The notes under the pieces were generated by a model. The model worked only from the letters and a program-made list of their open reading frames with translations, searched no databases and was not told where the DNA came from. This document shows positions 54,725-57,406 of a DNA stretch of 64,000 nucleotides, in pieces (position 1 is the stretch's first letter; every line of letters begins with the position of its first letter). Both the position numbers and the translations under genes were made by a program. The DNA comes from Desulfobulbaceae bacterium (GTDB lineage: Bacteria > Desulfobacterota > Desulfobulbia > Desulfobulbales > SURF-16), in NCBI GenBank assembly GCA_024637145.1, contig JAGXFQ010000039.1, forward strand, positions 2,860 through 66,859, given 5' to 3'.

Positions 54725-55126
54725 GGTGTTTTTAGTCAGATCGCAGGGGAACTCGTCATTAGGCAGGGAAGAGGCGGTGTGACAACATGCCGCAACAGGG
54801 GCTGCTGCTGGCAGAATCCGCCTTTTTCCGGAAATTATAGTGCTTGCTTTCTAGCAGGTCAGCCTTTACTATACTTGCCATAGCGAGGTTAACCAGCCGT
54901 TTTAAATCGCTATCTCTTAAAAAGATGTGAGGCCACACAGGCAGCCCCTGTTCCTCGTCAAAACAGGGAAAAGGCAGCACCTGACAGCAGTATTGTATTT
55001 TACCGGTCAATCTCCTCAACCGGCAGGATCCAGCAATCAGGCCTTTTCTTACCAGTGTTTCATAGATGACGCCAATGCTTTACATTCGCCTGACGCTCTT
55101 TAGCATCTGACGCACGGAGAAATTTC

Positions 55127-56782
55127 ATGGGGATTGCAACGGTCACCAAAAATATCGTCCTCCTCGGCCACTCCAAGGCCGGCAAAACAGCCCTTAGCCG
55201 CGCCCTGCTTAAAGCGGCCGGCGTTGAAAATCCAGTCATTGATAAAGACCCGGAATCCCTGGCCCACGGCATGACCACCACCTCCAGCCATTTCCACTTC
55301 AGCTGGCATGGGGCCAACACGGTGATCACCAACACCCCGGGGGATGACAATTTCCTTCATGAAGCCGATATCATGGCCCACATCAGCGACAATGCCGTGC
55401 TCACCATTTGTGCGGACGAGGCCCATAAATTCCAGACAGAAAAGGCGGCCCGTCTTATTCAGCAATCCACCATGCCCGCCATTCTTTTCATTAACCGAAT
55501 GGATGAGGAGAAGGCGGATTTCAGGGGCACTCTGGCGGCAATCCGTAAAAATATTCTCCTGGATCCTGCCATCCTCTACCTGCCCATTGGCAGCGGCACT
55601 GAATTTTGCGGTCTCATCGATGTAATCGGCGAAAAAGCCCTCTATTTCAAGACAGACAGCCCAGCCGCCCTCACCGAGGCGGAGATCCCCCTTGCCCTGC
55701 AAAAGGAGGCCTATCTGGCCCTTGAAAAACTGATGGAACAAGTTGCGGAAACAGATGATGAGCTTATTGAGGAATTGCTTGAAGAAGGCGAGCTTGACCA
55801 TGAAGATCTTGTCGCTGGCCTGAAAAAAGCGGTTGCCTCGGGCGCCCTGTCACCTGTGCTGCCCGGGGCAGCCAAAAAAGGTTTTGGGGCAGGGCTTCTT
55901 CTGGAGATGAGCCACAGCCTCTTTCCCGAAGGCGGCCAGATGGAGGCGCCGCCCCGCTGCCAGATCTTCAAGGTGGAGCACGATGCCAAGATGGGCACCC
56001 TTTACTACTGCAAGGTTGATTCCGGCACCATCCACACCGGCACCCTGTACAATATCAGCCAAAACAGTGAGGAAAAAGCGACAACCTTTTATATCCCCTT
56101 CGGCGGCACCCTTAAACAGACAGAGAGCCTCACCGCCGGCATGATCGGCGTCCTTGTCGACCTGAAGAAGAGCGCTCCCGGCGACACCCTGGCCCACTCT
56201 CCAGAGGCCCAACCCCTGGAACCGCTGCCTGTGGTGGCACGCTCTCATTGCACCTATGCCATTGCCTGCAAAAACCCCACAGAGAAGGGCCGCCTGCAGG
56301 AGGCCCTTGCAAAAATAATGGCGGAAGACCCGGCCCTGCACCTGGACCAGGAACCAAAAACCGGCGAAACACTTCTTTCCGGCCAGGGCCGCCTCCACCT
56401 TGAGACTGCCTGCAAGCGGATATCCCGCAAATTCGGCATTGAGCTTCTGCTTACCCTGCCCACAGTCCCCTATCAGGAAAAACAACAGGAGGGCAGGGAG
56501 CAGATTCTCCTTGAACCCCTGATGAGCCTGGCAATCACCCTGCCGGACGATTGTGTCGGCGAAGTCATTAAAGATCTTGGAAAACGTCGCGGCAAAATCA
56601 TGGAAATTCGCTCTGAGGCCAGCAACGAGGTCATTGTCAGCCAGGTGCCCATGGCTGAAATTCTTGAATATGGCAGCGACCTGGCCCAGTTGACCGGCGG
56701 CCGGGCCAGCTTCAAGGCTGTTTTCTCCCACTATGAACAGCTTGACGATAATGCGGTTCTGCACAAAAGTGCCGTGGTATGA
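55127..56782 (+). CDS. EF-G-like translational-GTPase paralogue lacking domain IV, with altered G3/G4 motifs
   Basis: GGAG lies 7 nt upstream. G1 is GHSKAGKT, G3 is NTPGD (canonical DTPGH), and G4 is NRMD (canonical NKMD). The domain II, III and V patterns are present (FKVEHDAKMGTLYYCKV; ALAKIMAEDPALHL; ILLEPLMSLAITLPDDCVGEVIKDLGKRRG..GRASF). Domain III joins domain V directly (..TVPYQEKQQEGREQILLEP..), and the protein is 551 aa. Confidence 0.75.
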   Translation: MGIATVTKNIVLLGHSKAGKTALSRALLKAAGVENPVIDKDPESLAHGMTTTSSHFHFSWHGANTVITNTPGDDNFLHEADIMAHISDNAVLTICADEAHKFQTEKAARLIQQSTMPAILFINRMDEEKADFRGTLAAIRKNILLDPAILYLPIGSGTEFCGLIDVIGEKALYFKTDSPAALTEAEIPLALQKEAYLALEKLMEQVAETDDELIEELLEEGELDHEDLVAGLKKAVASGALSPVLPGAAKKGFGAGLLLEMSHSLFPEGGQMEAPPRCQIFKVEHDAKMGTLYYCKVDSGTIHTGTLYNISQNSEEKATTFYIPFGGTLKQTESLTAGMIGVLVDLKKSAPGDTLAHSPEAQPLEPLPVVARSHCTYAIACKNPTEKGRLQEALAKIMAEDPALHLDQEPKTGETLLSGQGRLHLETACKRISRKFGIELLLTLPTVPYQEKQQEGREQILLEPLMSLAITLPDDCVGEVIKDLGKRRGKIMEIRSEASNEVIVSQVPMAEILEYGSDLAQLTGGRASFKAVFSHYEQLDDNAVLHKSAVV

Positions 56783-57291
56783 GCAGGGAAACCACCGAAA
56801 CCTATTGCTGCGGCATACTCACCATCAGCGACAAAGGTTCCCGGGGGGAACGGCAGGATACCAGCGGCCCGCAACTCCGGGAACAATTAGGCGCTGCCGG
56901 CCCGTATATCATCAGCAAATACGCCATTGTCGCCGATGACCCCACAGCCATCACCGCCACCCTGACCAACTGGTGCGACAGGCAGGGCCTGGATCTCATC
57001 CTGACCACCGGCGGCACCGGCGTGAGTCCCAGTGACCAGACCCCGGAAACCACCCGTCCCCTGCTTGACAAAGAGATACCGGGCATAAGCGAGATGATGC
57101 GCATGGCAAGTTTCCAAAAGACAGCCCATGCCGTCCTTTCCCGAGGCGTGGCCGGTATCCGCAAGAGATGCCTGATCATCAATCTGCCAGGCAGTGAACG
57201 AGCGGCCCGGGAAAACCTGGAAACCATCCTTCCCGGCCTGGCCCACGCCATTTACAAAATAAAGGGCGGCAGCAAGGATTGCGGCAGCTGA
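56779..57291 (+). CDS. mog: MogA/MoaB-family molybdopterin adenylyltransferase
   Basis: The ATG overlaps the upstream stop (ATGA). ILTISDKGS.G.R.D.SGP, LILTTGGTGVSPSD.TPE and LSRGVAGIR...LIINLPGS are MoaB/MogA signatures. Confidence 0.8.
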   Translation: MSRETTETYCCGILTISDKGSRGERQDTSGPQLREQLGAAGPYIISKYAIVADDPTAITATLTNWCDRQGLDLILTTGGTGVSPSDQTPETTRPLLDKEIPGISEMMRMASFQKTAHAVLSRGVAGIRKRCLIINLPGSERAARENLETILPGLAHAIYKIKGGSKDCGS

Positions 57292-57364: not shown

Positions 57365-57406
57365 AAAAAAAGGGCCGTGAGGATTAAACCCTCACGGCCC
57401 TTTTTT
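57365..57406. terminator. Bidirectional terminator between mog and convergent purM
   Basis: AAAAAAA-GGGCCGTGAGG(57372-82)-ATTAAAC-CCTCACGGCCC(57390-400)-TTTTTT: a perfect 11-bp stem. Confidence 0.8.

Follow-up and report, generated by a model that had tools for sequence, protein, structure and literature searches.

An EFG II (EF-G2) paralog that has lost domain IV in a lineage of uncultured Desulfobulbales

What function might be left to an elongation factor G (EF-G) that lacks the domain with which EF-G reaches the decoding center? The question is raised by a gene in a 64,000-nucleotide (nt) stretch of DNA from a Desulfobulbaceae bacterium (assembly GCA_024637145.1, contig JAGXFQ010000039.1, positions 2,860 to 66,859), which is hereafter called the window. 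An open reading frame (ORF) on its forward strand encodes a 551-amino-acid (aa) EF-G-like protein composed of domains G, G', II, III, and V. An earlier reading of the same DNA, made from its letters without database searches (the sequence-only reading), had described an EF-G paralog without domain IV and with unusual G motifs, and had proposed that it might be a regulatory, rescue, or hibernation-type ribosome binder. The protein, its length, and its G1 (GHSKAGKT), G3 (NTPGD), and G4 (NRMD) motifs were all confirmed by the ORF, its translation, and alignment. The answer favored here, with somewhat better than even confidence, is that the gene encodes a domain-IV-less accessory paralog of the EFG II subfamily that may act as a nontranslocating occupant of the ribosomal factor-binding site, a mechanism suggested by the sequence comparisons described below.

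The loss of domain IV, with domain III running into domain V, is evident from Pfam, phmmer, and alignment alike. The Pfam models GTP_EFTU (residues 8-267), EF-G_D2 (279-356), EFG_III (374-440), and EFG_C (461-542) match the 551-aa protein, and EFG_IV does not. When the protein is compared by phmmer with Thermus thermophilus EF-G (2bm1), residues 8-451 correspond to 13-485 and residues 450-540 to 591-680, leaving about 105 residues of the T. thermophilus domain IV without a counterpart. The 105 or 106 residues of this domain have been exchanged for an 8-residue polar linker (..TVPYQE-KQQEGREQ-ILLEPLM..), and the aligned region that spans the deletion measures 136 residues in long relatives versus 30 or 31 in the short forms. 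The protein ends 11 residues past domain V. An AlphaFold2 model shows a confident four-domain fold (mean predicted local distance difference test [pLDDT] score 89.9, predicted template modeling score 0.87), and Foldseek aligns it with ribosome-bound EF-G, mtEFG2, and EF-G2 structures at query-normalized TM-scores of 0.85-0.94.

Two trivial explanations for the missing domain could be discarded. A cryptic or split domain IV is ruled out by the clean gap seen by Pfam, phmmer, and the alignments and by the absence of a separate domain-IV ORF from the 2.86-megabase assembly, in which the sole EFG_IV match is the canonical fusA gene on contig C18. A sequencing or assembly artifact is ruled out by the recurrence of the same architecture in about 24 protein clusters (formed at 90% identity, from independent metagenomes) and in 11 species-level genomes. 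These clusters were recovered from a search of 5.8 billion proteins; their members are 537-552 aa long, share 53-93% identity, and all lack EFG_IV. The next-best matches are 682-694 aa long, carry EFG_IV, and show 34-39% BLAST identity (about 40% in a MAFFT alignment). Among the best 150 of 11,810 matches in a library clustered at 50% identity, which added one further member (P0023), the short clade is the only one without domain IV, and the other short entries are one truncated fragment and one protein without domain II. This last protein (P0162; 577 aa, EFG II-type, with DTPGY) aligns by blastp with the full-length P0026 in two blocks (residues 4-279 with 2-277, and 271-569 with 388-684), and either EFG II has here lost a further domain naturally or gene calling or assembly has produced an artifact.

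To which branch of the EF-G family does the short protein belong? In a tree of 85 EF-G sequences, the short forms, the long forms of Desulfobulbales, and T. thermophilus EF-G2 (P0194, PDB 1WDT; 1328 bits) fall in one clade of 82 rows (Shimodaira-Hasegawa-like approximate likelihood ratio test support 100; branch 0.52). All three sequences with DTPGH lie outside it, these being the genome's own fusA product and, from other phyla, the two EF-Gs L074 and L077. This is a quick tree with long branches, and it does not settle the deep branching order. EFG II was defined as a subfamily by Gly rather than Ala opening G1, by Leu rather than Thr after GKT-x, by a relaxed G2 without RGITI, and by the domain II signature Thr316, Gly360, and Lys/Arg379 (T. 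thermophilus EF-G1 numbering), and its genes always co-occur with another EF-G gene (Margus 2011, PMC3150367).

These signature positions were counted in an alignment of 21 short forms, 45 full-length forms from Desulfobulbales, and 16 wider EFG II representatives. Gly14 and Leu23 are invariant across the short forms. The G2 motif of the window protein is HGMTT, with T50 and no RGITI, and in the g5-like short subclade the Thr/Ser position of G2 is not alignable. The full-length forms have the G1 Gly in 45/45 and the Leu in 43/45, with S or T at position 64 (G2), and the full-length neighbors read GHGKSGKT-SL and DTPGD. In domain II, position 316 is I, V, or L in the short forms (T in one) versus T in 45/45 long forms, and position 360 is G in the short forms (A in the g11-like subclade) versus G in 44/45 long forms. 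The Lys379 position, which is D345 in the window protein, holds N in one of the 21 short forms and D or G in the other 20, versus K in 45/45 long forms and in 16/16 other EFG II proteins. Together, the tree and the G motifs place the protein in EFG II. Because the domain II signature residues are largely lost in the short forms but present in long forms from the same locus, it is best described as a derived, atypical descendant of that subfamily.

The catalytic His of the canonical DxPGH motif is likewise missing, which the sequence-only reading had noted for this protein. The His is indeed absent, but nowhere within the EFG II clade is the position after DxPG a His: it is D or E in 45/45 long forms of Desulfobulbales and Y, D, F, or A in the 16 wider representatives. 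The His-less G3 is thus an ancestral trait of the whole subfamily that is not peculiar to the window gene. This has a consequence for annotation, since curated models name the full-length relatives 'elongation factor G' though none has the catalytic histidine: the full-length orthologs pass NCBIfam TIGR00484 (883-906 bits) and NF009381 (666-695 bits). The 551-aa protein falls below both canonical EF-G cut-offs (251.9 versus 659.4 and 404.8 versus 583, respectively), and it departs from the five-domain EF-G layout in that domain IV, with its conserved Lys471, Lys472, and Glu513, is gone.

The gene neighborhood reveals where the short form came from. Short-form genes of all three subclades lie in the order murJ (minus strand), EFG, mog (plus strand), purM (minus strand), and across Desulfobulbales the same slot holds a full-length, His-less EFG II gene (685-694 aa). 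A survey of 201 genomes of the order yielded 144 with a match at E <= 1e-50, each of which has either the short or the long form. The short form is therefore not a surplus copy that accompanies a full-length EFG II, since no genome of the 201 has both. The short-form gene is the positional ortholog of full-length EFG II and has replaced the full-length form at the same locus. It is present in 11/11 sampled genomes of three genera (g1, g5, and g11), which belong to a single family that is also the family of the window (f1); within that family, the long form is carried by the remaining sampled genera that gave a match.

In the EFG tree the short forms make up one monophyletic group (support 100) nested among the long forms, and the same 11 short-form loci are monophyletic in a tree of the neighboring MurJ (support 99, one change). 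The trees and alignments indicate that domain IV was lost once, when 105-106 codons were deleted in frame in an ancestor shared by the three genera. The deletion is exactly in frame and lies at the domain boundaries. The short clade's stem branch measures 1.12 substitutions per site in EFG versus 0.34 in MurJ, so that the deletion went along with a burst of change specific to this gene. The resulting lineage is restricted to roughly a dozen uncultured species.

The shortened gene has since been maintained. The ratio of nonsynonymous to synonymous substitution rates (dN/dS, Nei-Gojobori) is 0.06-0.17 for eight short-form pairs and 0.04-0.15 for ten long-form pairs, which clearly points to purifying selection on the short form over genus-level divergence. 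Reading frames are intact across the 53-95% identity range, with no frameshifts in the 11 genomes of three genera or the approximately 24 clusters. One short-form match in a genome of the same genus (G061, C35:746-2386) is reported with a single internal TAG, which may be a true nonsense allele, the gene's normal stop falling within the aligned range, or an error.

Change since the deletion has been uneven along the protein. Domain II is the most diverged (29% identity between short and long forms, versus 68% among long forms), followed by the G core (37% versus 62%) and domain III (39% versus 69%), and G' (51% versus 61%) and domain V (51% versus 71%) are among the least diverged. The docking site of domain V in EF-G is the L11 stalk base. 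Between short and long forms, the acidic G' patch MEQVAETDDELIEELLEEGE is nearly invariant; the equivalent region of EF-G binds the L7/L12 stalk, and Lys379 of EFG II has been proposed to contact h15 of 16S rRNA (Margus 2011, PMC3150367). Switch I is 9 residues shorter in the short forms and 16 shorter in one subclade. Overall, the short protein has kept the parts that face the 50S subunit (the G' patch and domain V) and has lost or remodeled those that face the 30S subunit and the tRNAs, namely domain IV, the domain II Lys, and 9-16 residues of switch I.

The G-motif substitutions that drew attention to the protein are conserved to a limited extent. NTPGD and NRMD are present in 12/12 members of the window's subclade, but the other two short subclades have DTPGD or DTPGN together with NKMD. 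The Asn that opens G3 (N69) is unique to the window's subclade, this position being D in the other short forms and in all long forms. The Arg of NRMD is found among short forms only in that subclade, and it also occurs in 10/45 full-length forms.

Several known systems resemble the short protein in part. It shares with EFG II/EF-G2 proteins of known structure (T. thermophilus, 1WDT; Mycobacterium smegmatis, 9K0Z/9K10; Bacteroides thetaiotaomicron, 8DMF) its clade, the Gly in G1, the Leu after GKT(x), the lack of RGITI in G2, the lack of a catalytic His, and the status of an accessory copy that always stands beside a canonical EF-G. Unlike them, it has no domain IV, three conserved subfamily positions having gone with it; Thr316 and Lys379 are lost, switch I is shorter by 9-16 residues, and in the window's subclade the G3 Asp has become Asn. 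The short form should thus be incapable of the slow translocation that has been reported for EF-G2 of Thermus and of Bacteroides. The same G-G'-II-III-V arrangement exists in engineered EF-G without domain IV, as reported by Rodnina 1997, Martemyanov & Gudkov 1999, and Savelsbergh 2000. Those constructs were derived from canonical EF-G and keep DTPGH and a full switch I, whereas the window protein is natural, has passed through genus-level evolution, and has a remodeled G core, domain II, and domain III.

LepA (EF4) and BipA (TypA) also have a G-II-III-V core without domain IV, and they are nonessential, stress-linked factors that use the same ribosomal site. However, G' is missing from them, their G motifs (with the His) are canonical, and they carry family-specific C-terminal domains that contact tRNA (PMC5207388). 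The 551-aa protein scores far below the BipA (98.9 versus a cut-off of 757.3) and LepA (76.8 versus 533.9) profiles, and searches by sequence and by fold both place it with EF-G. RF3 (PrfC) is another EF-G-like GTPase without domain IV, but it has no EF-G-type domain V either and retains the catalytic His; here the profile score is 80.5 against a cut-off of 473. Similarly, the Tet(M)/Tet(O) ribosomal protection profile gives 178.4 against a cut-off of 775, and the protein does not have the domain IV of that family. The assignment to EF-G made by the sequence-only reading thus held up.

In the literature searched, no natural EF-G without domain IV was found described, there being only remarks about RF3. 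Margus et al. excluded from their tree Leptospira EFGs 'with large deletions' (PMC3150367). The sequence-only reading had left open whether the family was already characterized: EFG II has been described (Margus 2011, PMC3150367), but the domain-IV-less form is not described there. The EFG II subfamily and its missing His are therefore known already, and what is new is a selectively maintained, natural EFG II without domain IV that arose by a single precise excision.

Other factors in the same genome can be considered for the tasks of a complete EF-G. The genome carries a canonical fusA gene (contig C18:90327-92381; L002/L080) whose 696-aa product has AHIDSGKT and DTPGH and scores 1014 bits to TIGR00484, so that the short protein, as is typical of EFG II, is accompanied by a canonical EF-G. 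It also carries RF3 (prfC, contig C13) and LepA/BipA-like genes (contigs C13 and C27). The canonical EF-G has a 'KDG' switch-I insert, which is a marker of spdEFG1, a subfamily like the mitochondrial EF-G1 (Margus 2011, PMC3150367). This insert suggested that the short form might be the recycling EF-G of the genome, an idea that was rejected on finding two EF-Gs of about 1000 bits in most of the genomes sampled from the short-form genera; long-form genera typically add EFG II as a third. The second canonical EF-G is probably missing from the window's assembly because that assembly is 86% complete. Given the canonical EF-Gs, the short protein is not what essential translocation and recycling depend on.

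How might such a protein act? The P-loop, G4, and G5 are kept, so the short protein probably still binds guanine nucleotide. According to the reading favored here, its nucleotide-bound form would dock at the ribosomal factor-binding site like EF-G. Engineered EF-G without domain IV reportedly binds ribosomes and carries out a single round of GTP hydrolysis, with no translocation or efficient release (Rodnina 1997; Savelsbergh 2000), which would match this reading. Domain IV contacts A-site tRNA and mRNA, reaches the decoding center, and blocks back-sliding (PMC5207388), and in mycobacteria it drives domain II of the ribosome recycling factor (RRF) during recycling. With this domain gone, translocation of the EF-G type is impossible for the short protein, which would be unable to reach the A site, to move tRNA, or to work with RRF. 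It would instead sit in the factor site, blind to tRNA, and compete there with EF-G, EF-Tu, and other factors. Its GTP turnover would be slow or nil, and essential translocation and recycling would be left to the canonical full-length EF-Gs. When energy is limiting, it might throttle translation or protect ribosomes, a role comparable to the one in stress that has been proposed for EF-G2 of mycobacteria. The pairing with mog would be inherited operon structure, with no shared function.

Reports on full-length EF-G2 proteins bear on the proposed GTPase behavior and do not agree with one another. M. smegmatis EF-G2 has Tyr at the position of the catalytic His, its disruption leaves growth kinetics unaffected, and the mycobacterial protein has been presented as acting in stress, with neither GTPase nor recycling activity. 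For Bacteroides EF-G2, translocation that is slow and GTPase-free has been reported. T. thermophilus EF-G2, which is also His-less (DAPGY), is reported to hydrolyze GTP and to translocate (bioRxiv 10.64898/2026.05.25.727771), and a missing His alone is therefore no proof of a dead GTPase. The sequence-only reading had concluded that the protein probably cannot hydrolyze GTP in the canonical way or translocate. Both parts stand as far as a His-dependent mechanism and translocation by domain IV are concerned. Its regulatory or hibernation-type ribosome binder is still the best functional guess.

Certain observations weigh against a role as a nontranslocating factor-site occupant. The proposed ribosome binding is drawn from how well G' and domain V are conserved and from the predicted fold, and the Lys-to-Asp change in domain II together with the shorter switch I could equally mean weaker ribosome binding or a role off the ribosome. 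The long stem branch does reveal a change of function, not its direction. Loss of GTPase activity is not established, given the activity reported for the His-less Thermus protein (bioRxiv 10.64898/2026.05.25.727771). Also, mog adjoins the EFG gene in every short-form locus with enough flanking sequence.

This last point requires a closer look at the neighborhood. At the junction GTATGAGC, the EFG stop codon TGA (56780-56782) overlaps the mog start codon ATG (56779-56781). The overlap with mog noted in the sequence-only reading is thus real in the window, but at 4 nt it is not conserved, the spacing at other short-form loci ranging from -3 to +76 nt. A terminator hairpin after mog looks like the end of a two-gene EFG-mog unit. 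Most full-length orthologs share the mog neighbor, and at least 13 full-length loci with complete flanks lack it and run from EFG directly to purM. The three EFG II genes sampled outside the order adjoin rimP-nusA-infB (L088, L089) or relA (L090), not mog. No Moco (molybdenum-cofactor) riboswitch or other Rfam element was found upstream of the EFG-mog pair, all matches being far below gathering scores. A general link between EFG II and mog is ruled out by the three loci outside the order and by the 13 or more loci within it. The molybdenum-cofactor connection that the sequence-only reading had called unexplained is most simply read as gene order inherited within the order or lineage, without shared function, and a functional tie between the two genes is unsupported.

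Some further features of EFG II loci were noted along the way. The genes at L088 and L089 encode full-length His-less EFG II proteins and lie directly upstream of rimP-nusA-infB on two unrelated metagenomic contigs, and the gene at L090 lies three genes upstream of relA. Within the order, a full-length subgroup (L046, L047, L054, L057-L059, L061, L062, and L069) has TRMD rather than NKMD as G4 and no mog, with purM following directly. At two loci of this subgroup a regular-expression search returned DTPGA or DSPGA, probably from a second site; the alignment has D or E after G3 in 45/45 long forms.

The same body of evidence can be read in other ways, and two alternatives keep the protein on the ribosome. 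It might act during assembly or on free subunits, with its G-II-III-V core attaching at the stalk base of a free 50S subunit or a late precursor, for biogenesis, anti-association, or quality control. Such a role would suit an architecture that converges on the LepA/BipA core, the low divergence of the 50S-facing G' and domain V, the known 50S complex of mycobacterial EF-G2 (PDB 9K10), and the position of EFG II genes of other phyla directly upstream of rimP-nusA-infB. It is nevertheless rather unlikely: the C-terminal domains through which LepA and BipA make specific contacts have no equivalent in the protein, its scores fall far under the NCBIfam cut-offs of both, and 50S and 70S binding are indistinguishable in silico. 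A partial EF-G-like catalytic role is distinctly less likely. Here the protein would stabilize the rotated or hybrid state for RRF, rescue factors, or initiation, and would turn over GTP by a mechanism that does not use the His. That engineered EF-G without domain IV is said still to bind ribosomes and hydrolyze GTP, and that His-less T. thermophilus EF-G2 is active, would make this feasible, but the G3 Asp-to-Asn change (in the window's subclade) and the short switch I disfavor efficient hydrolysis, and recycling with RRF uses domain IV in EF-G.

The other two alternatives give up the ribosomal role. If EFG II had become dispensable in this lineage, the truncated gene could be a slowly decaying remnant without a selected function, which would account for the very long stem branch (1.12), the lost EFG II signature residues, the Asp-to-Asn change in G3, and the shortened switch I, and would fit the lack of a growth-kinetics effect when EF-G2 is disrupted in M. 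smegmatis. Decay is very improbable, however, with dN/dS near the full-length values, no frameshifts and one reported internal stop (G061) among the 11 genomes and approximately 24 clusters, a deletion placed exactly in frame at domain boundaries, and a confident four-domain fold. The least probable of these alternatives is an off-ribosome role with Mog, in which the protein would be a nucleotide-dependent partner of molybdopterin adenylyltransferase, in parallel to the EF-Tu-like CysN that regulates CysD. The constant presence of mog after the short-form gene, the ATGA overlap in the window, the persistence of the EFG-mog pair where the flanks differ (L014), and the remodeling of 30S-facing features are what such a partnership would lead one to expect. 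Against it stand the full-length orthologous loci without mog, the translation and stringent-response genes that adjoin EFG II outside the order, the lack of an upstream Moco riboswitch or other Rfam element, and the fact that the ribosome-stalk-binding G' patch is the best-conserved segment of the protein.

The features of the locus are listed in Table 1. Upstream of the EFG gene, TGCTTTAC and ACGGAG are kept among relatives, and the GGAG lies 8 nt ahead of the start codon. Farther upstream, a block in the intergenic region between the divergent murJ and EFG genes (approximately 54867-54926) is conserved between genera at the short-form loci; an ATAGCG..CGCTAT inverted repeat lies within it, and a regulator may bind there. 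For murJ, a good minus-strand promoter match (54862-54834) has this block just upstream of it.

Table 1. Coordinates of the domain-IV-less EFG II gene, its protein segments, and adjoining features in the window
Feature	Position	Strand	Basis or remark
Candidate promoter TTTACA-16-TAGCAT and Shine-Dalgarno GGAG (55116-55119)	55079..55119	+	Consensus scan only; weak
Domain-IV-less EFG II (EF-G2-type) paralog gene	55127..56782	+	ORF, translation, Pfam without EFG_IV, AlphaFold2, Foldseek
G1/P-loop GHSKAGKT, residues 14-21, then A22-L23	55166..55189	+	Gly14 and Leu23 are EFG II signature residues (Margus 2011, Table 1)
G3 NTPGD, residues 69-73	55331..55345	+	Asn replaces Mg-site Asp; Asp replaces catalytic His
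G4 NRMD, residues 123-126	55493..55504	+	Alignment; N and D retained
G' acidic patch MEQVAETDDELIEELLEEGE, residues 203-222	55733..55792	+	Alignment; L7/L12 role from Margus 2011
Domain II, residues 271-365, including D345 at the EFG II Lys position	55937..56221	+	Pfam EF-G_D2
Domain III, residues 366-451	56222..56479	+	Pfam EFG_III; EF-G alignment
Deletion scar, linker KQQEGREQ, residues 452-459	56480..56503	+	Alignments; model pLDDT ~76
Domain V, residues 460-540, then a short, poorly conserved C-terminal tail	56504..56746	+	Pfam EFG_C; tail pLDDT 44-57
mog, MogA/MoaB-family molybdopterin-binding protein, 170 aa, MoCF_biosynth domain	56779..57291	+	Start overlaps EFG stop (ATGA)
Bidirectional intrinsic-terminator hairpin between convergent mog and purM	57366..57406	.	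19-pair GC-rich stem, A-run and T-run flanks

The finding overturns nothing that exists and is limited to about a dozen uncultured species. A bolder proposal, which we put forward tentatively and regard as doubtful, is that the clade makes up a functional class new among translational GTPases: a plug derived from EF-G that, blind to tRNA, would fill the factor site, monitor the pool of guanine nucleotides, and protect ribosomes or keep them silent in bacteria of the sulfur cycle that are starved of energy. In bacteria, no extra copy of EF-G is more common than EFG II/EF-G2, the role of which is disputed, the reports from Bacteroides, mycobacteria, and Thermus differing. The loss of domain IV under purifying selection amounts to a natural deletion experiment, which argues that the selected function here is not translocation or recycling. 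If the short protein is indeed a nontranslocating occupant of the factor-binding site, then EFG II in this order would be selected for something that needs no domain IV, and the compact four-domain protein lets one ask what the body of EF-G does at that site without touching tRNA.

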